DNA of 40,176 bases. It comes from Chthoniobacterales bacterium (lineage in GTDB: Bacteria; Verrucomicrobiota; Verrucomicrobiia; Chthoniobacterales; JAFAMB01). Made by a program: the position numbers and the translations under genes. The notes beneath the pieces were generated by a model that saw only the letters and a list, made by a program, of their open reading frames with translations, was not told the DNA's origin and did no database searches. Positions 2,632 to 11,622 of this stretch are shown here, piece after piece. The DNA lies in NCBI GenBank assembly GCA_035710445.1, contig DASTDH010000160.1, forward strand, positions 1 through 40,176, read 5' to 3'. Positions within the stretch are counted from its first letter, which is position 1; each line of letters starts with the position of its first letter.

Positions 2632-5031
2632 TCACAGCGTCTCATTCCAGAATTGGCGAAAGGCGTGACTCCAGTTCCGGTCCTGCACGCGTTCGCGGGC
2701 TCGTTGCGCCATCTTTTGCCGGAGATCCTGGTCAAGAACGAGCCGGCGCACCGCCCTGGCAAAATCTTCGGCGTCATGAGAGCGAGTCACGAGCCCGTCC
2801 ACTCCATCCTCTACCAGCTCGTGCGGTCCGCCTTGATCGGAAACAACGCAAGGCAGACCTGCCGCCTGCGCCTCGATGACCACATTTCCAAAAGTATCAG
2901 TCGTACTGGGGAAGACAAAGATATCGCTTGAGGCGTACGCGGTCGCTAGTTCCCTCCCTTTCAAGTAGCCGGTGTAGCATGCCTCTGGAGCGATCTCCAT
3001 CAGCTCCTTGAGATAGGGACCGTCGCCTACTACTAATAGTCGCACCGCCAATCCTTCCTGGCGAAGGAGCCGAAGCGCTTCCACCGCAACGTTGAGATTC
3101 TTTTCCTTGGAAATCCGGCCAACGTAAAGCAACCCAATATCTTCCGCCTCCTTGCCAAATTGAGTCCAGAACTTCGTACTGCGTAGTTCAGGGTTGAACT
3201 GGAGTTGATCCAATCCGCGCGGAAAGATTTTGAGTTTTTCCGGAGCGATTCCGCGATCGATCCAACGCTGGCGATAGTGCTCCGAATTGACGTAAACGAG
3301 ATCGAGCTGGGAGTAGAACCAGTGCATAAAGTTCCAAGCCAGCGTCTCCATGTAATTGTCCTGGGTCAGGATCCGAACGTATTGGGGAAAGTCGGTATGG
3401 TAAATGCCGGTGGTCTTGAGATCGAGCATCTTCCCGGCCAATAGCGCGGTCAATCCAACGGGTCCGGGGGTGCTAATGATTAACTCGGTAAACCGCTCGC
3501 GCTGAATATAGTCGATCATATGCAGGACCGGCGGGAAACTGAGTTTCTGCAGCTCGTACTCCGGAAGTTCGAATTCGCCGATCGGGGCAAAGTTCTTGAT
3601 CGGGATATCGGCCAGACTGATCTGCTGACGTGAGGTCACAACGATCAGGTCGGCCCCGCATTCCAAACCAGCTGCCGTCATCTTGCGAATCGTGGTGGTT
3701 ACTCCATTGACATCCTCGAGAGTATCCGTGAACCACGCGCGTCTGGTATTTTGGAGGACGTCCGGTACGAAATTTACGGTGCCGACGCAGATATCAGTCA
3801 ATCGACGACGAGAAGGGGCTTGGCTATGAAAGCCGTAAAAATATGGACCGAGCAACATCCCCATCGGCAGAAGGGCGCTGAGCGTTTGCATGGCCTCCAC
3901 CACGTTACCGCCGGTTATCTGTTGAACAAATTTGTCGAAGAAACGAAACCCGAGCTGGTTGAAGATTAAGGCAACCAGCAGGAACGCTCGCCTTTCCGGC
4001 TCCTTCACTCCTTCGGTTTCCCGAGCCAATTGTGCCTGGACGTTGGCGTTGCCAAAATAATTCGCCAGCTCCGGCCAAATGGAAAGATTAGAGGGCCTCG
4101 CCAGCTCGAAGATCTTACCGGAGAGGATGCCGCTGAACATGAGGCCAATCTTTTCCCCGAGGCTGAATTGAGTCGGATTCTTTCCCTCCATGAAGCGGGA
4201 AAACACTACTTCGAGGAAATCGAGGTTGGGACTGACCGCGGAAAACTTAGCTTTGGCAAATTGGTAGGTCGTATTGTACAGGCCGTGTGCTATCGCGAGC
4301 GGGGTACCGCCAGGGCCACGGACTACGCAATCGCCGTGCTCGATGTATCGAAAGAATTCCGCCACGTTCTCGCTGGTGGGTGCTTCGGTGTAAGCCGATG
4401 CAGGAAAAATGCCGGCGTGATCGTCTGAGCCACCAATCAGGATCTTGCGCCATGGTTCTTTGTGGGTCGGGGTTAATTTCTGTCGATCCGAGAATTTCTC
4501 GATCAGTTCGGGAGTAAGCGATCGAAAAACAAACCGCGCGACTTCGCTGAGCAGAGAGTCACGGAGCCCGTTTACTCCTTCGAAGTGCCTGAAAAGCAAA
4601 ACCAACTTTTGAACATGGTCAGCCGTTAATCGTCGGTCTTTGTCGTAAAACGGATGAGCGACGGCGTGAACGATTCCTCGATCGGCCAGATAGGCCCGCA
4701 ACTCGTAAATATTCCGTCGTACTTGTTGGATCTCCCGGTGCTCGACTTCCGTAATATTCCAGACCAGCACATGGACGCCGACCTGGTCCTCGGGAAACTC
4801 CGCCGCAACCTCACAGCTAACGAAAGTCTCTGGCTGATCGGCTATCTCCAGGCAACCATCGATTCGGTTGTGATCGGTGAATGTAACAAAAGACATCCCC
4901 TTTTCCCGCAATCGCTTGTACAGGCTGCGCGGATCGGAATAACTATCGGGAAATTCGAAACGCCGAAACAGCCACTCGACAGAGCGATCACTGAAACGTG
5001 AGTGCAGATGCAAATCAACTTTCGCAGCCAT
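2632..5031 (-). CDS. PHP-domain phosphoesterase fused to a family 4 (GT-B, Glycos_transf_1) glycosyltransferase, 799 aa
   Basis: N-terminus has VDLHLHSRFSDRS...TFTDHN...GGSDDHAG, the PHP metal-binding His/Asp motifs. The central part is hydrophobic or amphipathic (AFLLVALIFNQLGFRFF, LSALLPMGMLLGPYFYGF). C-terminus has WFTDTLEDVNGVTTTI...LLYVGRISKEKN...FVFPSTTDTFGNVVIEAQAAGLPCVVSDQGGPHELVEDGVDG, a GT4 E-x7-E type motif. Confidence 0.85.
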   Translation of the reverse strand: MAAKVDLHLHSRFSDRSVEWLFRRFEFPDSYSDPRSLYKRLREKGMSFVTFTDHNRIDGCLEIADQPETFVSCEVAAEFPEDQVGVHVLVWNITEVEHREIQQVRRNIYELRAYLADRGIVHAVAHPFYDKDRRLTADHVQKLVLLFRHFEGVNGLRDSLLSEVARFVFRSLTPELIEKFSDRQKLTPTHKEPWRKILIGGSDDHAGIFPASAYTEAPTSENVAEFFRYIEHGDCVVRGPGGTPLAIAHGLYNTTYQFAKAKFSAVSPNLDFLEVVFSRFMEGKNPTQFSLGEKIGLMFSGILSGKIFELARPSNLSIWPELANYFGNANVQAQLARETEGVKEPERRAFLLVALIFNQLGFRFFDKFVQQITGGNVVEAMQTLSALLPMGMLLGPYFYGFHSQAPSRRRLTDICVGTVNFVPDVLQNTRRAWFTDTLEDVNGVTTTIRKMTAAGLECGADLIVVTSRQQISLADIPIKNFAPIGEFELPEYELQKLSFPPVLHMIDYIQRERFTELIISTPGPVGLTALLAGKMLDLKTTGIYHTDFPQYVRILTQDNYMETLAWNFMHWFYSQLDLVYVNSEHYRQRWIDRGIAPEKLKIFPRGLDQLQFNPELRSTKFWTQFGKEAEDIGLLYVGRISKEKNLNVAVEALRLLRQEGLAVRLLVVGDGPYLKELMEIAPEACYTGYLKGRELATAYASSDIFVFPSTTDTFGNVVIEAQAAGLPCVVSDQGGPHELVEDGVDGLVTRSHDAEDFARAVRRLVLDQDLRQKMAQRARERVQDRNWSHAFRQFWNETL

Positions 5032-5055: not shown

Positions 5056-5808
5056 CTAAGATTCGGTTGAATCGAGATGGTTAGCAATGAACTTCTCGTA
5101 GGTCAACGGCCGGCGATCTTCTAACGCGGAGCCGAGCAGACTTTTCACCTGAGCCCAAACCATTGGGATCTCTCGATCGGTTGGATGGATCGCAATCCGG
5201 AGCAGGGGCCGCTCCCGCAAGCGAGAGCTTAGGCCATGGTTCCAAGCCAAACTGACTACCCGACGCCAGGAAGACCGGGTACTCCAAACTAATGAGCGAG
5301 AGACATAACGATGCAGGCCCTCAAAAACATCGACCGAGCTGACCGTCGTTATATAGCGAAAGCCGACATGTCGCACGGCCGCTTCTGCCTCAAAACCGAG
5401 TAGCCAGGCCGGCGCCACAAATCCGGAAATTGGTCTCTGCAAAAACTCCAGATCGGTCAGACCGCGGCGCAATCGCCGAGACGCTTCGGATCGATCCAGA
5501 TCGTAGAATTCTCCTTCTCCAGCAGTGTAAACCTGGTTGGTGAACTTTACGATCCCGGCATCGGTGTCCTTGGGACTTCGAGCGTGAAAATAACCATGCA
5601 AAATTGGCTCATGACCTTCATTCACCTTCGCTTTCAGCCATCCCCGAAAATCTTCAGATTCCGTGACCGGAGCTCGCTCATGGTGATTGGGAATTATCAG
5701 AAGCGACGTTATTGGAACGCCGAGCTCCCGCAAATCGTCCAAAATTCGAGCGCAACTTGCTTGGGTTAGCGGGGAGACATCATGGATGGAAACGACGAGG
5801 TTCCGCAT
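5056..5808 (-). CDS. DUF2334 family protein (polysaccharide-deacetylase-like fold)
   Basis: MRNLVVSIHDVSPLTQASCARILDDLRELGVPITSLLIIPNHH...GHEPILHGYFH matches my recollection of the DUF2334 N-terminal signature (IHDVSP...HGY.H). Overlaps the upstream Lnt-like gene by 29 nt and lies 24 nt upstream of the PHP::GT4 start. Confidence 0.6.
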   Translation of the reverse strand: MRNLVVSIHDVSPLTQASCARILDDLRELGVPITSLLIIPNHHERAPVTESEDFRGWLKAKVNEGHEPILHGYFHARSPKDTDAGIVKFTNQVYTAGEGEFYDLDRSEASRRLRRGLTDLEFLQRPISGFVAPAWLLGFEAEAAVRHVGFRYITTVSSVDVFEGLHRYVSRSLVWSTRSSWRRVVSLAWNHGLSSRLRERPLLRIAIHPTDREIPMVWAQVKSLLGSALEDRRPLTYEKFIANHLDSTES

Positions 5809-7279
5809 AAAACTTCTTCAAGCCTTCACTCAAAGCTAAAAACAGCGCTAACATACCCATGGCAATCGGGAACCAATCGCCATGGGCAGCGTAATAGGAA
5901 GAATCAACCCCAACCGGTGGATCGATTTCCCCTACGTTCGCTCCTTCGATCTCCGGATCTGCTGAAGCGGTCAACCGTCCGGAGCTAGCCATGAGGATCG
6001 CTCCCGCTCGACGCGAGTTGAACACAATTGGTCGACCGAGCGCAACCGCCCAGGCGCGGACATTTTGTTTTAGTTGCTCTTCCTCAGCAGCGACCGCAGC
6101 CGGTTGATCAACGAGTACCACGAAACATTGAATTTGTTTCTGGACGGCGGCCCGCAATCTCTCCAGCGAGCCGGCATCATTCGCCAAAAAAGGAAGAATG
6201 GAGGCGTCCTTACAGGTGATGGGCTGATCGTTGCGTAAACGCTGATCGGCAATCAGCTGAAAAAGCGGATGCGATGCGAAAGCAAATACGCTTCGGACCG
6301 ATCCAGGGGCGAAGATATTGTATCCAGTGAGAGGCGCTTCGGGCGAAGCAGCTGTCCCGGCAATCAGCGTGATGCTCTGTCCGAGCGAGGCCTTGCTCAA
6401 AACTTGGTAATCACCGCTGTGCAATTGGGTTCGGCGCCACACAACCAAATCGCAGTGGGTAGCTGGAGCAACGAGTGACAGATCGGTCAAATGGTTGAGA
6501 TCGGTCTCCGAAGAAGAAACGATACAAACCTTGAGCCCCTTCGGCTCTGACGCAGATCGCAAGGACCAAAAGCCGGCCACTGCGACCAGGAGCAGCACGG
6601 CTAAGGTTGCGGTGACATCGAAGCGTCCCGCCCAATTCATGCGTCCAGGTTGGAGAATCAAACGCCTGATGTTGGCTAGAATGATCGTATTCGCGAACAC
6701 CACGATAAAGGTTAGCCCGCTGAGACCGACAACTTTGGTGAGTTGAAGCAACGCCAGATTGCCGGCGACCGGCAATCCCGCTTGATTCCAAATTGGCAAA
6801 ATAAAACCTCGCAGCCACTCCAGACCGATCCAGGCGGAGGCAACCAGGGCCGCGAGACGGAGGTGTGCTCCCGAACCAATCCACGCGTCGGTTGAGCGCC
6901 CTGGAGCAACCAGGATTGGTTCAAGCGAACCCTTCTTTCCGGTTTTTCCCTTAGAAAACTCTGGAAGGACAGCAAATCGCCCAATCAGCCAGGCCCAAAC
7001 CGCTCCTGCGACGGCCAAGGATCCGACATTTTGGGCTAACTCATTCCACCGGGTCTCCACTCCCAGCCAGCTAAACGCGATGAAGCCAAAGGTCGCACAA
7101 AACAGCGCCCCTTGAACCAGTAAGACCAACGCGGACCCTCTCAGAATGAGCAAACCGCCCAGTACTGGAACGAAAGCAATCCAAACGAGCCAAGACACGT
7201 TCCACGGTGGAAACGCTAAGCCCAAGAGCACACCGCTTAGCAAGCTCAAGCCGATCTGCCAAATCAGGTGTATTTTCAT
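5780..7279 (-). CDS. Apolipoprotein N-acyltransferase (Lnt)-like membrane protein with a degenerate CN-hydrolase domain
   Basis: N-terminal polytopic domain with LAFPPWNVSWLVWIAFVPVL and LEWLRGFILPIW, compared with E. coli LAFSPYDVW and TEFLRGWVLTGFPW. C-terminal TM (YYAAHGDWFPIAMGMLALFLAL). The periplasmic domain aligns by eye with the Lnt nitrilase domain but without the E-K-C triad (see findings). The ATGA overlaps the DUF4105 gene stop. Confidence 0.7.
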   Translation of the reverse strand: MKIHLIWQIGLSLLSGVLLGLAFPPWNVSWLVWIAFVPVLGGLLILRGSALVLLVQGALFCATFGFIAFSWLGVETRWNELAQNVGSLAVAGAVWAWLIGRFAVLPEFSKGKTGKKGSLEPILVAPGRSTDAWIGSGAHLRLAALVASAWIGLEWLRGFILPIWNQAGLPVAGNLALLQLTKVVGLSGLTFIVVFANTIILANIRRLILQPGRMNWAGRFDVTATLAVLLLVAVAGFWSLRSASEPKGLKVCIVSSSETDLNHLTDLSLVAPATHCDLVVWRRTQLHSGDYQVLSKASLGQSITLIAGTAASPEAPLTGYNIFAPGSVRSVFAFASHPLFQLIADQRLRNDQPITCKDASILPFLANDAGSLERLRAAVQKQIQCFVVLVDQPAAVAAEEEQLKQNVRAWAVALGRPIVFNSRRAGAILMASSGRLTASADPEIEGANVGEIDPPVGVDSSYYAAHGDWFPIAMGMLALFLALSEGLKKFYAEPRRFHP

Positions 7280-8589
7280 CGAGCGCTTGGTCTCACGGGA
7301 GTTCTTCGATAAATCTCAATGGCGCAACGCCAGCCGAGCAAAATTGCGAGGGGATAGATGGCATGATGAAACTGCTGCGGCAACCAGGGCGACGCGATTG
7401 AGAAGAGCGCGATCTCCGCTAAAGCAATCGCGAAGTAGGCGCGCATCCAGTATCGCCCTGATCGCTGGAGGAAAATTAACCCGATGCCGGCCAGGAGATG
7501 AGTTGGCACCAACCAGCCAAGATTCCAATTGTCATAAGCCTCCCAATGTAATGTGTTCGCCGAAAAGAGGACCAGGAATGTTCCAACCCCGCCCAAAATA
7601 AGAAAGACGATTCCGGAGAGGGCAGCCGAAGCCGAGTAGCCTCTGATCATCCAGCAGGCGACCCAAAAAAGTAATAGAACCCAAAGGACGAATTCGGGCC
7701 GAAAATACCATGGTACCGAAGGCAATGGTTGTGGCCGGTAAATCGTCGTCGGTTTGCGACCCAAGGGACCGCTTTCGTTGGAACTTCCCTGAACCGCTCG
7801 TTCAAGATTGAAGGGCAAGAAACAGGCTTCGCGCGGGGTAACCAAACGATCAACCCGCGAACCCAAAAGAAGATAGATACCAAAACGTATCCAGGGGATT
7901 CGGAGAAAGTATGGATCCAGCATTTGGCGGAAGGTAATTTTTCCGATCGACGAATCGGCTACCGGATGGCCCCAAACTTTCTCAAATATGTCTCGTACTC
8001 GAGTTGAGCAGTTATCCAGTATGAAATCGTAACGATAGAAGCGATTTTCCGGCAGCAGATTGGTCTCCAACTCGGAGAACATCGCCTGGCGCTGATCAGC
8101 CTTGAAGTTCAAGATCGATTCAGTAACACCCTGGCCCAAAGTACCCCGCTCATTGATCTCCGCGGTCGATAGTCCCACCGACAACTGGTAAAGCAGATCT
8201 CCGCGAGCAAACTTGAGATAAAAGGCCTCCGTTTCGAAATCAAAAGTCCCAAAATTGTACAGCCGGTCAATCTCTTGGGCGTCATCTCGCACCCGGATCG
8301 AGCTGTGACCAAACGCTGTATAGAGCTCGTCGCCGGGAGAATAGGTAACCAATGAGATCGTCGCGTGATCACTCAAGCGCGGTAGATCGATACGCGGTGT
8401 CGCGAAGCTGACGATGGGAGCAAATACGGCCCAGAATAAAATGAGTGCAGAGTTCAGACGGTTGGCGCAGTTGCAAATGTTCCAGCGACCAGGAAGGACG
8501 CCGGAAGCATCGAGAAGGCCGACAACGCCGGGAACTGGATCTGAGTGCTCTGGTGTCGTGCTTTGGCAACTCCTTGCTGTCTCCATCAA
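7276..8589 (-). CDS. DUF4105 (Lnb_N-like periplasmic domain) protein with a C-terminal multi-pass membrane domain
   Basis: ISLVTYSPGDELYTAFGHSSIRVRDDAQEIDRLYNFGTFDFETEAFYLKFARGDLLY is the DUF4105 signature as I recall it. It is followed by about 5 hydrophobic helices (FVLWVLLLFWVACWMI, IVFLILGGVGTFLVLF, LLAGIGLIFL, FAIALAEIALFSIA, IYPLAILLGW). The exact start is uncertain. Confidence 0.65.
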   Translation of the reverse strand: MMETARSCQSTTPEHSDPVPGVVGLLDASGVLPGRWNICNCANRLNSALILFWAVFAPIVSFATPRIDLPRLSDHATISLVTYSPGDELYTAFGHSSIRVRDDAQEIDRLYNFGTFDFETEAFYLKFARGDLLYQLSVGLSTAEINERGTLGQGVTESILNFKADQRQAMFSELETNLLPENRFYRYDFILDNCSTRVRDIFEKVWGHPVADSSIGKITFRQMLDPYFLRIPWIRFGIYLLLGSRVDRLVTPREACFLPFNLERAVQGSSNESGPLGRKPTTIYRPQPLPSVPWYFRPEFVLWVLLLFWVACWMIRGYSASAALSGIVFLILGGVGTFLVLFSANTLHWEAYDNWNLGWLVPTHLLAGIGLIFLQRSGRYWMRAYFAIALAEIALFSIASPWLPQQFHHAIYPLAILLGWRCAIEIYRRTPVRPSAR

Positions 8590-8735: not shown

Positions 8736-10682
8736 CTACCCTACCCTGGCTTTCGCATCGGCTTGCAACCAATCCCATAAGCGATTCAGCGATCCGCGCA
8801 GTTCGCTCTTTGCTTCGGCAAGCGTTGGTCGAGTTAACCTTTCCCTTTTGCCGAACAAATAGAACTTGATCTTTGGCTCGGTACCGGAAGGACGAACCGC
8901 GATCCTGCGACCGTCCGCTAACGTGAAGATCGTCATCTTCTCGCTCGGAAGCAAATCGCCTTCGCTATCACGGATCGTGCCGGAGGTGAAGTCCTGGATC
9001 TGTGAAACTCCTACTTCGTCGATTTGTTCGGGAGGCGTTCGGTTGTACGAATCGGCTAGCCGCCGGATTTTATCCGCGCCTTCCGCCCCTTCGAACACCA
9101 ATGAGCCGCTCTGTTCAAAATAGTAGCCGTACTCCAAGTAAATCTCGTCTAACAATTCATCCAAAGTGAGACCTTGCGACTTCGCGTACGCCGCGACCTC
9201 AGCGAACATGAGAGCGGCGCCATTGGCGTCTTTGTCTCGAACAAAATCGGCACCGCTGTAGCCGTAGCTCTCTTCTCCGCCGAACACGAAGAAATAGGAA
9301 TGTTCCAACCGAGCTTTGCGCGATTCATCCTCGCTCAACATGCGATACGAATTGCGAATCGATGCCGGCAACGCTTTCTCATATTTCAAAAGTTTGGCGC
9401 CAATATATTTGAACCCAGTGAGCGTTTCTACACAATGGAGTCCGTGGCTTTGCGCGATCGCTTTTTGCAGGTCAGTGGTTACCAGCGTCTTGATGACGAC
9501 AACGTGGTGTTGGTTTTGATCGTTTAGAATTCCAAGCTGCCTTAACGTTCGAGAACGGTAGTAGGTCAACAAAGAGCCAATTTGGTTTCCGGTCAGCAAA
9601 ACTAACTTTCCGGCACGGTTGCGCACTGCTACACCCATTCGGTCACAGTCCGGATCGGTGCCGATAACCAGGTCGGCGGTTTCTTTGCGGGCGAGGTCCA
9701 TCGCCATTAAAAGCGCTTCGGGGTTCTCCGGATTCGGTGACTTGACCGTGGGAAACAAACCATCCTGACGATCCTGTTCCGGTACCGTCAACACGTTAAC
9801 CCCGATGTCGCGCAACAGCGGCACCGAGATTACACCGCCGGTCCCGTGGATGGGCGAAAAAACCACCTTGAGATCTCTCTGCTGCGCCACTACCGCCGGT
9901 TGCAAGATCAGCGAACGTAATCTCGCTTTGTAGATCTCATCGAAGTCCGAGCCAAGGACCACGAGCTTGCCTCTCTGCTCGGTGGCAGTCGGCTTATAGT
10001 CTTCGCTCGTGATCGCATTCACCTGCTCGATAATGGCGCCAGCATGGGGTTCAACCACCTGAGCGCCATCCTCAAAATAAACCTTGTAGCCGTTGTCGTG
10101 CGGAGGATTGTGGCTCGCCGTTATGACGATTCCGGCAGTCGCATTGTTATAACGAACCGCAAAAGAAAGCTCCGGTGTCGATCGCGCCGACTCAAAGAGG
10201 AAAACGTCACAGCCCAACTCGATTGCGACCGTGGCAGCGAGCTCGGCAAATTGGCGGGAAAAAAGCCGGGTATCGTGAGCGATCGCCAGGCTCGGCCTCC
10301 GATCTGAGTGAATAGAAGCCAGGTAGTCTTTCAGGTAATTAACCAGCCCTTGCGTCGCTCGACTCACACTATAAAAGTTCATCGCGTTAGTCCCGACACA
10401 GGGATGCTCAGGCGGCTCAGACTCCAGGTGCGATCCCCGTTCGGCCTGGGTGACTCGATTGCCGATCGACCGGCCACGCAGCCCACCAGTGCCGAACGCA
10501 AGCGCCTTGAAGAAGCGATCGTTCAACTCGGACCAGGCTTTTGCTTCCACCAGCTGGGAAATAGCGAGCGGATAGAGCGGATTGTTCCCGCCAGCTAGCA
10601 ACAGTGCGATGTTGCCAGCGCTGGTTGCTAACAAATGTCCGTCCTCGGCAGCTTGCTCCAAAGTTTCTCGCAAGGCGCTCAT
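8736..10682 (-). CDS. Phosphoglucomutase/phosphomannomutase family phospho-sugar mutase
   Basis: Phosphoserine loop ITASHNPPHDNGYKVY. Metal loop VIGTDPDCDRMGVAV. Sugar-binding FGGEESYGYS. Phosphate-binding RPSGTEPKIKFY. Start set at ATG 10682 (MSALRETLEQ...); an upstream in-frame ATG at 10757 adds 25 odd hydrophobic residues. Confidence 0.85.
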   Translation of the reverse strand: MSALRETLEQAAEDGHLLATSAGNIALLLAGGNNPLYPLAISQLVEAKAWSELNDRFFKALAFGTGGLRGRSIGNRVTQAERGSHLESEPPEHPCVGTNAMNFYSVSRATQGLVNYLKDYLASIHSDRRPSLAIAHDTRLFSRQFAELAATVAIELGCDVFLFESARSTPELSFAVRYNNATAGIVITASHNPPHDNGYKVYFEDGAQVVEPHAGAIIEQVNAITSEDYKPTATEQRGKLVVLGSDFDEIYKARLRSLILQPAVVAQQRDLKVVFSPIHGTGGVISVPLLRDIGVNVLTVPEQDRQDGLFPTVKSPNPENPEALLMAMDLARKETADLVIGTDPDCDRMGVAVRNRAGKLVLLTGNQIGSLLTYYRSRTLRQLGILNDQNQHHVVVIKTLVTTDLQKAIAQSHGLHCVETLTGFKYIGAKLLKYEKALPASIRNSYRMLSEDESRKARLEHSYFFVFGGEESYGYSGADFVRDKDANGAALMFAEVAAYAKSQGLTLDELLDEIYLEYGYYFEQSGSLVFEGAEGADKIRRLADSYNRTPPEQIDEVGVSQIQDFTSGTIRDSEGDLLPSEKMTIFTLADGRRIAVRPSGTEPKIKFYLFGKRERLTRPTLAEAKSELRGSLNRLWDWLQADAKARVG

Positions 10683-10725
10683 ATTCTTTGCATTTATCCT
10701 CGGCTGCGAGGATACGCAAATCAGG

Positions 10726-11622
10726 ATGTACCCCACTGAACAGATCATGAGCGCCATCGCCCAAAGGTCGGGTCTCCGCCAGAGCGGAACGACCGCTTAT
10801 CGCATTGTTGATGGCATCGGTGACGGTCTGCCGGATTGGGTGATTGACGATTTCAATGGAAACTGGCTGATCGGTCTCCAACCAGGACGTCAGGTTCCGA
10901 ACCTGGGCGCCACCCTCGGCTACCATTCTCTCTATGCAAAAGTACTGACTAACGAAAAAAGGAAACCTCCATTCTTTCTCGCCGGTGATCCGGTCATCAT
11001 GAAATTCCTGGTTCAAGAGCGCAGCTTGAATTTTTGGATCGATTTCCAAGCTGGGTACTCGCAAGGGATCTTTCTCGACCAACGCCTTAACCGACAGCGC
11101 GTCAGAGAGATCAGTTACGGGAAGAGCGTACTTAATACATTTGCCTACACCTGCGCTTTCGGTGTTGCTGCAGCAGTGGGCGGCGGTTCTACCGTCAATG
11201 TCGACCTTTCACGAGCATACCTGAATTGGGGTCGCGAAAATTATTCAGCCAACGGTATCGACGATCAAAAGCACGAGTTTATCTATGGAGATGTATTCGA
11301 CTGGCTCAAGCGGTTCGCAAAAAAGGGACAACATTTCGATCTGATCATTTTAGATCCGCCCACATTTTCACGGGATCGGAATGGACGGGTTTTTCGAGCC
11401 GAAACTGACTATGGCGAGCTGCTCCAATTGACACTCTCTGTTAGCTCGAAAGACAGCCAACTGCTTTGCTGCACGAATTCTCACCGCCTTCCCCGCGCCG
11501 GCTTCGAAAAGATTCTGCGAGCCTGCCTGCCTAAGTCTGCCGCGATGGTTGACCTGGGGATGCCGGAAGATTTTCCCGGCAGCGATCATTTGAAGTCCTT
11601 CTGGATACAACGAAGTGGCTGA
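10726..11622 (+). CDS. Class I SAM-dependent methyltransferase, RlmI/RlmK-like (no PUA domain)
   Basis: VLNTFAYTCAFGVAAAVGGGSTVNVDLSRAYLNWGRENY...FDLIILDPPTFSR is the Methyltrans_SAM/RlmI-type core, including the DPPxF motif. Start is ATG 10726 or 10747. The TTG at 10582 in the ORF track would overlap the divergent mutase gene. Confidence 0.7.
   Translation: MYPTEQIMSAIAQRSGLRQSGTTAYRIVDGIGDGLPDWVIDDFNGNWLIGLQPGRQVPNLGATLGYHSLYAKVLTNEKRKPPFFLAGDPVIMKFLVQERSLNFWIDFQAGYSQGIFLDQRLNRQRVREISYGKSVLNTFAYTCAFGVAAAVGGGSTVNVDLSRAYLNWGRENYSANGIDDQKHEFIYGDVFDWLKRFAKKGQHFDLIILDPPTFSRDRNGRVFRAETDYGELLQLTLSVSSKDSQLLCCTNSHRLPRAGFEKILRACLPKSAAMVDLGMPEDFPGSDHLKSFWIQRSG

Follow-up and report, generated by a model that had tools for sequence, protein, structure and literature searches.

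An Lnt homologue with all aligned catalytic residues replaced lies beside a putative Lnb-type lipoprotein N-acyltransferase gene in soil Chthoniobacterales

INTRODUCTION

At positions 5780 to 7279 on the minus strand of a 40,176-nucleotide stretch of DNA from a Chthoniobacterales bacterium (contig DASTDH010000160.1 of assembly GCA_035710445.1; the whole stretch is called the window below) lies a gene for a homologue of the apolipoprotein N-acyltransferase Lnt. The residues that align with the catalytic Glu-Lys-Cys triad of Lnt are all replaced in this protein, which is called the triad-less Lnt here. Directly upstream lies a gene of the type of Lnb, the lipoprotein N-acyltransferase of Bacteroides. 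Lnt, a member of branch 9 of the nitrilase superfamily, attaches the third fatty acid of lipoproteins. It is regarded as universal and essential in diderm bacteria, where it is the third enzyme to act in lipoprotein maturation, and as an antibiotic target; Lnb was discovered in 2024. A sequence-only reading of the window had described the protein as an Lnt paralogue without the triad and had proposed its replacement by, or partnership with, the neighboring gene. In this analysis, we examined the fold, the catalytic center, the genomic setting, and the conservation of the triad-less Lnt and weighed the explanations for its retention.

RESULTS

Features of the two genes

The features of the triad-less Lnt and of the upstream gene are as follows, with the evidence for each in parentheses.

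5780..7279, minus strand: triad-less Lnt orthologue of 499 amino acids (open reading frame list, LNT_N, hhalign, AlphaFold2 [AF2] model, Foldseek)
6545..7279, minus strand: membrane domain, residues 1-245, seven transmembrane helices (Pfam LNT_N, AF2 helices)
5879..6544, minus strand: periplasmic nitrilase-fold domain without the triad, residues 246-467 (AF2 strand and helix order, Foldseek)
5783..5878, minus strand: C-terminal eighth transmembrane helix, residues 468-499 (AF2 helix 469-492, aligned with helix H8 of E. coli Lnt)
6431..6433, minus strand: R283 at the site of the catalytic Glu267, WPE to WRR (hhalign and MAFFT)
6290..6292, minus strand: S330 at the site of the catalytic Lys335 (hhalign)
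6182..6184, minus strand: A366 at the site of the nucleophile Cys387 (hhalign, MAFFT, and AF2 model)
7276..8589, minus strand: Lnb-type putative lipoprotein N-acyltransferase gene (Pfam Lnb_N and 5TMH_Lnb, NF051878)
8305-8307, 8254-8256, and 8008-8010, minus strand: putative Lnb-type triad H95, N112, and C194 (motif and spacing)
7276..7279, minus strand: ATGA overlap of the Lnb-type stop codon and the start codon of the triad-less Lnt (sequence read directly)

Fold and domains of the triad-less Lnt

Pfam assigned LNT_N (PF20154) to residues 15-198 of the protein with an E value of 2.4e-13, and the same scan gave no match to a CN_hydrolase domain. The TIGR00546 (lnt) model scored 31.4 bits, below its curated cut-off of 132.9, and matched the membrane domain only. 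BLASTP showed no significant similarity of the protein to E. coli Lnt, and phmmer against the PDB sequences returned nothing but noise matches to an intein. Since single-sequence methods miss the homology of the periplasmic domain, profiles were needed. When a profile of 30 clade members was aligned by hhalign with one built from 28 canonical Lnts, E. coli Lnt among them, the two matched end to end over 443 columns (probability 100%, E value 2.5e-76), with residues 1-492 of the triad-less Lnt covering residues 6-512 of E. coli Lnt.

We then built a structural model with AF2. An earlier alignment of 36 mostly close homologues yielded a predicted local distance difference test score (pLDDT) of 55 and was unusable; after the input was enlarged by 25 divergent clade members and 18 canonical Lnts, the model reached a pLDDT of 85.6 and a predicted template modeling score of 0.87. 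The strand and helix order of its periplasmic domain is that of the αββα nitrilase fold. Judged by this model, the protein truly derives from Lnt and has both of its domains, since the top 24 Foldseek matches in the PDB were all Lnts (E values of about 1e-14, TM-scores of 0.55-0.68) and the next were free-standing amidases of the nitrilase superfamily (target-normalized TM-scores of 0.5-0.59). Pfam, hhalign, AF2, and Foldseek thus bear out the earlier call of an Lnt with a membrane and a periplasmic domain at 5780-7279.

The triad-less Lnt keeps the LEWxRG motif, in which R157 corresponds to R139 of E. coli Lnt, and its W164 corresponds to W148. The invariant W150, W155, R157, W164, Q179, G185, and G188 are common to canonical Lnts. 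The roles of R139, W148, W237, E343, Y388, and the G145-F146 pair in Lnt have been described (PMC5500888). The periplasmic domain is about 50 residues shorter than that of E. coli Lnt.

The membrane domain carries a Lys-rich insertion, SKGKTGKKGSLEPILVAPGRSTDAW, at residues of about 108-133 (window positions of about 6881-6958). By alignment, its site is the loop between transmembrane helices 4 and 5, which is cytoplasmic in E. coli Lnt. P121, W133, and S136 are invariant in this region, where the AF2 confidence is low, and a shorter form of the insertion occurs in canonical verrucomicrobial Lnts (P0057). A cytoplasmic partner could dock at this insertion.

Replacement of the catalytic residues

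In the profile alignment, E267 of E. coli Lnt (IIWPE) falls on R283 (VVWRR), K335 (YNKNHL) on S330 (VRSVFA), and C387 (AAICYE) on A366 (PFLAND). A joint MAFFT alignment gave the same Glu and Cys columns and was gappy and unreliable around K335. In the AF2 model, a strand spans residues 359-365 and a helix begins at 366, so that A366 sits at the nucleophile elbow. The sequence-only reading had identified R283 exactly; its other two assignments, A335 for K335 and L362 for C387, lie five and four residues away from those of the profile alignment. The residues that follow the nucleophile are also changed, with Y388 replaced by N367 and E389, conservatively, by D368; both belong, with W237 and E343, to the further essential residues of Lnt.

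None of the three sites holds the catalytic residue as a consensus across the 30 clade members. Residue 283 is Arg in 15 and Cys in 9, with two Ser, two Trp, one Gly, and one Ala; residue 330 is Asn in 18 and Ser in 10, with one Thr and one Lys; and residue 366 has Asn as its consensus (25 members), with three Gly, one Ala, and one Glu. R329, beside S330, is Arg or Lys in 29/30. Within the periplasmic domain (residues 246-467), no column of the 30 sequences holds Cys, Glu, or Lys at 80% or more. C356, which lies near the nucleophile site and had raised the question of a register shift, is Cys in just 4/30, and such a shift is excluded. By these alignments, the Glu-Lys-Cys triad is absent from the whole clade, as it had been reported to be from the window protein.

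An alternative register that equates K335 with K357 (CKDASILPF against NKNHLVPF) and C387 with L389 (VVLVD) would skip one β-α unit. It was ruled out by hhalign, by MAFFT at the Cys column, and by the DSSP order of secondary structure, all of which put C387 at A366. K357 itself is Lys in only 17/30 clade members.

The surroundings of the former active site are reduced as well. The loop of arm 7, which bears the essential W237 in Lnt, is 12 residues shorter, arm 3 (the long β5-β6 loop with the E343 region) is about 16 residues shorter, the E343 segment itself is 9 residues shorter, and the G145-F146 pair that contacts Y388 in Lnt is deleted.

The Lnb-type gene and its coupling to the triad-less Lnt

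The upstream protein matched Pfam Lnb_N (PF13387; E value of 4.3e-20) and 5TMH_Lnb (PF25221; 1.4e-18) and thus has the layout of a periplasmic NlpC/P60-like Lnb_N domain followed by a domain of five transmembrane helices. The NF051878 model scored 195.7 bits over positions 21-383 of 394, against an equivalog cut-off of 550. By these profile scores, the protein is a divergent relative of Lnb. As the sequence-only reading had stated, DUF4105 contains the Bacteroides Lnb (PMC11573676). The gene was read from a TTG at 8589, and the true start may be further downstream.

The putative triad of the Lnb-type protein, H95, N112, and C194, has the same spacing (17/82) as H49, N66, and C148 of Bacteroides thetaiotaomicron Lnb (PMC11573676) and is invariant in all 28 neighbors of triad-less Lnts; these residues were assigned by motif and spacing rather than by direct alignment to the Bacteroides sequence. 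C148 is essential in B. thetaiotaomicron Lnb (PMC11573676).

The Lnb-type gene lies directly upstream of the lnt homologue in 28/28 triad-less loci (those with an upstream flank available) and in 0/21 canonical loci. The overlap between its stop codon and the start codon of the triad-less Lnt, which had been noticed in the sequence-only reading and is the 4-nucleotide ATGA at 7276-7279 in the window, recurs in 20 of the 28 loci, as ATGA in 17 and as a 20-nucleotide overlap in 3. Among 25 genomes of the family, 23 have both genes and the other two, which are incomplete, have neither. Lnb_N was found in the same 23/25 proportion of family genomes and in 3/16 genomes of other families of the order.

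Two other kinds of protein were considered and set aside. Proteins with DUF4105 only, which score higher for Lnb_N (about 130 bits), have neither the 5TMH domain nor an NF051878 match, and none was found in the window's genome. About half of the family genomes encode one to four such proteins; examples in one of these (G001) are L084:2557-3570, L085:2662-3678, and L086:2400-3536, with 337-378 amino acids and Lnb_N at residues of about 130-285. An apparent fusion of Lnb_N and LNT_N (P0043, NCBI, 671 amino acids) has a junk-like center that resembles out-of-frame translation, has no 5TMH domain, and comes from a short contig; it is probably a frameshift read-through or a gene-calling artifact and was not used as evidence.

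Orthology and the lnt content of the genomes

A gene of the phosphoglucomutase (PGM) family lies upstream of the Lnb-type gene in the window and served as a synteny anchor. In 16/21 sister loci, canonical lnt lies directly downstream of the PGM gene, and in two loci (L057 and L068) canonical lnt is followed by the same two genes, DUF2334 and PHP::GT4, as in the window. Because of this shared synteny on both sides, the triad-less Lnt occupies the lnt position. By gene order, the protein is the positional orthologue of canonical Lnt and not, as had been supposed, a paralogue.

The window's genome encodes Lgt and LspA. No canonical Lnt was found in it, and the triad-less Lnt is the sole Lnt homologue that we found there; the search for a second intact lnt, proposed with the sequence-only reading, thus came out negative for this genome. 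Among the 25 family genomes, a single match scored above the Lnt cut-off, while 13/16 genomes of other families of the order had such a match. The single family match (G002:C12; L017, 437000-449000), from a genome of the same genus, was rejected as a family lnt, since its contig has a guanine-plus-cytosine (GC) content of 65% in a genome otherwise at about 54%. Its gene order, lnt-corC-ybeY-phoH, looks like proteobacterial contamination, and its lnt seems frameshifted.

A very divergent Lnt-like paralogue that bears the triad was also considered as a second intact lnt; it has no counterpart in the window's genome. It occurs in 2/25 family genomes, at L016:5345-7057 (G001:C1) and L019:3617-5392 (G022:C480), as proteins of 570-591 amino acids. 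Its motifs (LPEGA, DKQxGAP, and AIC[NS]E) look intact, its GC content is native, and its branch is very long.

Clade, selection, and rarity

All homologues of the triad-less Lnt came from Chthoniobacterales (Verrucomicrobiota) of soil that have not been cultured. Full-length relatives with 38-86% identity are encoded at about 30 genome loci, and canonical Lnts with 23-33% identity at about 20 more. The triad-less proteins are monophyletic (100/100); their clade lies among the canonical Lnts of Verrucomicrobiota and has a long stem (1.45 substitutions per site). One contig labeled Terriglobales (Acidobacteriota) (L033, JBPYDQ010000752.1) carries the complete PGM-Lnb-Lnt-DUF2334-PHP::GT4 block with the triad-less form of Lnt; its sequence nests inside the Chthoniobacterales clade, and the contig is probably mis-binned.

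About 30 genomes have the gene with an intact frame, and the clade shares about 75 invariant residues. In seven pairs, the ratio of nonsynonymous to synonymous substitution rates (dN/dS) ranged from 0.09 to 0.16 in the membrane domain and from 0.10 to 0.19 in the periplasmic one. Since the ratios are this low, the triad-less Lnt is, on codon-level evidence, a functional protein with both domains under strong purifying selection.

Among 101 full-length nearest representatives from 1.84 billion proteins (two truncated or poorly aligned rows being set aside), the Glu-Lys-Cys triad is absent in just seven, all of them clade members. A literature search found no paper on a triad-less Lnt coupled to Lnb. 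The database label "apolipoprotein N-acyltransferase" on the triad-less Lnts is probably wrong as to activity.

Downstream glycolipid genes

Two further genes follow the triad-less Lnt in the window, and the PGM gene precedes the Lnb-type gene.

5056..5808, minus strand: DUF2334/GpgD-like lipid deacetylase (Pfam DUF2334, 1.3e-21; NF053788, 184 bits)
2632..5031, minus strand: PHP-like N terminus fused to a GT4 glycosyltransferase (GpgS-like), the last gene of the block (family profile matches)
8736..10757, minus strand: phosphoglucomutase-family gene, the synteny anchor (locus comparison)

The stop of the triad-less Lnt overlaps the DUF2334 start by 29 nucleotides in the window, and nearly all related loci have the same arrangement. 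The four genes, from the Lnb-type gene to PHP::GT4, are connected by stop/start overlaps or by short gaps. The DUF2334 protein scored 184 bits with NF053788 (cut-off of 280), and the PHP::GT4 protein scored 133 bits with NF053787 (cut-off of 480); at these scores, the two are relatives, not equivalogs, of the GlcN-PG pathway genes GpgD and GpgS. GpgS/GpgD chemistry leads to a free amine on a diacylglycerol-anchored molecule, and in Pseudomonas a UPF0104 flippase accompanies the two proteins (PMC12713373). No UPF0104 flippase gene was found in the window's gene block.

The order lnt-DUF2334-PHP::GT4, with a 4-nucleotide overlap, also occurs with canonical Lnt in L057 and L068, and lnt adjoins DUF2334 in two other lineages with canonical Lnt (G029:C1 and G038:C62). 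Because it is present with an intact Lnt, the linkage between lnt and DUF2334 arose before the triad loss and does not depend on it. DUF2334 occurs in 38/41 genomes of the order, whatever their Lnt state, and is not beside lnt in about 17/21 canonical-Lnt loci. The linkage suggests that lipoprotein N-acylation and an amino-glycolipid pathway have an old operonic connection in Chthoniobacterales. PHP::GT4 is 74-93% identical across loci in which the triad-less Lnt is just 38-45% identical, its neighbors being far less conserved, and it is about 57% identical even to its counterparts in canonical-Lnt lineages.

DISCUSSION

A probably displaced Lnt beside its putative replacement

We consider it probable, although far from settled, that the Lnb-type enzyme took over N-acylation and that the triad-less Lnt was kept as a noncatalytic membrane partner. 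The phyletic pattern and the synteny suggest that the Lnb-type protein probably performs lipoprotein N-acylation, and the gene arrangement points to a displacement of Lnt by a nonorthologous Lnb-type enzyme with both genes still present. What appears to be new is that the displaced Lnt was not lost; it persists in conserved form without the triad, its translation coupled to that of the putative replacement. The occurrence of the Lnb-type gene in every triad-less locus and in no canonical one, together with the lack of a canonical Lnt, supports the proposal of replacement or partnership made in the sequence-only reading.

Such a history may have begun in the ancestor of one family-level clade, in which a full-architecture Lnb gene would have been inserted between the PGM gene and lnt. 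The Lnb-type enzyme, which kept its His-Asn-Cys triad, would have taken over apolipoprotein N-acylation; Lnt would then have lost all three triad residues, and two of its substrate-funneling arms would have become shorter. From its sequence and model, the resulting protein would no longer be able to form the thioester acyl-enzyme. It may instead act as a lipid- or apolipoprotein-binding scaffold that presents substrate to Lnb, or it may stabilize Lnb, and such a scaffold would use the old Lnt membrane domain and the domain interface. A stronger form, in which the Lnb-type protein and the inactive Lnt are an obligate heteromeric N-acyltransferase, is put forward only tentatively and seems to us less likely to be right than wrong. 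In the heteromer, the membrane domain and the remodeled pocket of the triad-less Lnt would capture the apolipoprotein or the phospholipid donor for the NlpC/P60 site of Lnb.

Several points weigh against a partnership of the two proteins or against the displacement itself. The adjacency and overlap of the genes indicate co-expression, not interaction, and the adjacency weighs less than it would between distant taxa because the wider synteny (thyA-folA … PGM … S14, CorC) is conserved across the clade. The overlap of the Lnt stop with the DUF2334 start predates the triad loss and offers another reason for the retention of the triad-less Lnt. In E. coli, the Bacteroides Lnb is active by itself (PMC11573676), and Lnb therefore has no intrinsic need of a partner. 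With 196 bits against a cut-off of 550, the substrate of the Lnb-type protein could differ from that of Bacteroides Lnb. The window's genome is 93% complete in 770 contigs, and the absence of a second lnt is therefore not absolute. Finally, the alignment used for the AF2 model held canonical Lnts, which biases the model toward the Lnt fold.

Other explanations for the retention of the triad-less Lnt

The triad-less Lnt might instead be kept because of the glycolipid genes downstream. It would then anchor the deacetylase and PHP::GT4 to the membrane, activate them, or handle lipids as their subunit. The 29-nucleotide overlap with DUF2334 in nearly all loci fits this explanation, as do the same gene order with canonical Lnt (L057 and L068, and lnt-DUF2334 in G029 and G038) and a block that is without the UPF0104 flippase of Pseudomonas GpgS/GpgD (PMC12713373). 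There is also a precedent in actinobacteria, where fusion or adjacency of Lnt and Ppm is documented (PMC3850990); in mycobacteria and corynebacteria, an Lnt domain is joined to Ppm1, a polyprenol-phosphate-mannose synthase. We nevertheless think this explanation rather unlikely. The link is loose, in that DUF2334 is present in nearly all genomes of the order and yet stands apart from lnt in most canonical loci; a mere anchor would not explain the purifying selection on the periplasmic domain; and the coincidence of the triad loss with the Lnb insertion is left unexplained. A broader version would make the four coupled genes one pathway for an N-acylated amino-glycolipid, with the pair acting not, or not only, on lipoproteins: the GT4 protein would add N-acetylglucosamine to a lipid, the DUF2334 protein would deacetylate it, and the Lnb-type protein, with the triad-less Lnt as a lipid-binding partner, would N-acylate the amine in the periplasm. 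The free amine produced by GpgS/GpgD is chemically analogous to the N terminus of an apolipoprotein (PMC12713373), the junctions between the four genes are tight, and the Lnb-type protein scores well under the Lnb equivalog cut-off. No such lipid is known, however, most family genomes would be left with no lipoprotein N-acyltransferase, and the linkage of lnt with DUF2334 and GT4 predates the Lnb insertion and occurs with an intact Lnt; we regard this version as quite improbable. Combined, the two glycolipid-centered explanations are doubtful, if still a possibility of some substance.

It is very improbable, in our judgment, that the triad-less Lnt is still an enzyme, whether an N-acyltransferase with noncanonical residues or a neofunctionalized hydrolase or transferase. 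The strong purifying selection on the periplasmic domain would agree with an activity, and so would the invariant polar residues around the former pocket (D277, R282, Q341, D358, D391, Q402, N406, and R416). Against this, no Cys, Ser, His, Glu, or Lys that might serve as nucleophile or base is conserved in the domain; the conserved hydroxyls are just T461 (25/30) and the invariant Y463, which is also present in canonical Lnts. The nucleophile site varies within the clade (N/G/A/E), arms 3 and 7 are truncated, and all characterized enzymes of the nitrilase superfamily require the Glu-Lys-Cys triad (PMC5500888). The idea that the protein is a decaying, functionless relic of the displacement by Lnb is scarcely credible. 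The lost triad, the two shortened arms, and the long stem branch are what a relic might have, but the low dN/dS (0.10-0.19) in both domains, a frame that stays intact in about 30 genomes diverged to 38-45% identity, the roughly 75 clade-invariant residues, and the conserved stop/start overlap all speak against decay.

Comparison with known systems

The triad-less Lnt resembles the Lnts of E. coli and Pseudomonas aeruginosa (PDB 5N6H, 5N6M, and 8AQ2) in its eight-helix membrane domain with the LNT_N signature and in the insertion of an αββα nitrilase-fold domain between transmembrane helices 7 and 8. It differs from them in that all three catalytic residues are replaced, the arms are shortened, and G145-F146 is deleted. 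Its conservation argues that the Lnt scaffold has a second function, distinct from catalysis, which could be the binding of substrate, the stabilization of a partner, or hand-over to Lol.

Inactive-looking second Lnts are known in actinobacteria, namely, BCG_2279c of Mycobacterium bovis (C387S) and Lnt2 of Streptomyces scabies; they cannot N-acylate lipoproteins alone and have been proposed to act in a contributory or accessory way (PMC3850990). Unlike the triad-less Lnt, these proteins are paralogues beside an active Lnt and have one triad change or none. The triad-less Lnt is the sole homologue found in its genome, has lost the triad and part of the substrate funnel, and is accompanied by a putative active enzyme, the Lnb-type protein, that is nonhomologous to it.

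The Lnb-type gene is like Bacteroides Lnb in that it sits in genomes without canonical Lnt. Whereas the Bacteroides Lnb is a stand-alone enzyme that is sufficient in E. coli (PMC11573676), the verrucomicrobial Lnb-type protein is divergent and its gene adjoins an apparently inactive Lnt in 28/28 loci, mostly with a stop/start overlap. If true, an obligate heteromer of the two would be a third architecture of the lipoprotein N-acylation machinery and would imply a separable, noncatalytic substrate-handling function of Lnt.

In Staphylococcus, LnsB is a membrane protein of the CAAX-protease type (CPBP) and not an Lnt derivative. As a working model, the Lnb-type protein and the triad-less Lnt are like LnsA/LnsB, the two-component system for lipoprotein N-acylation of that genus, in pairing an NlpC/P60-type protein with a polytopic membrane protein (PMC11573676, PMC13559823); they are unlike them in that the Lnb-type protein already has its own domain of five transmembrane helices.

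DUF4105 and Lnt repeatedly displace each other in fixed genomic contexts (PMC12994826). In those cases the displacement is either/or, whereas here both genes coexist and the displaced Lnt appears to be conserved as a pseudoenzyme. The clade may thus represent a natural intermediate of the nonorthologous displacement of Lnt by Lnb.

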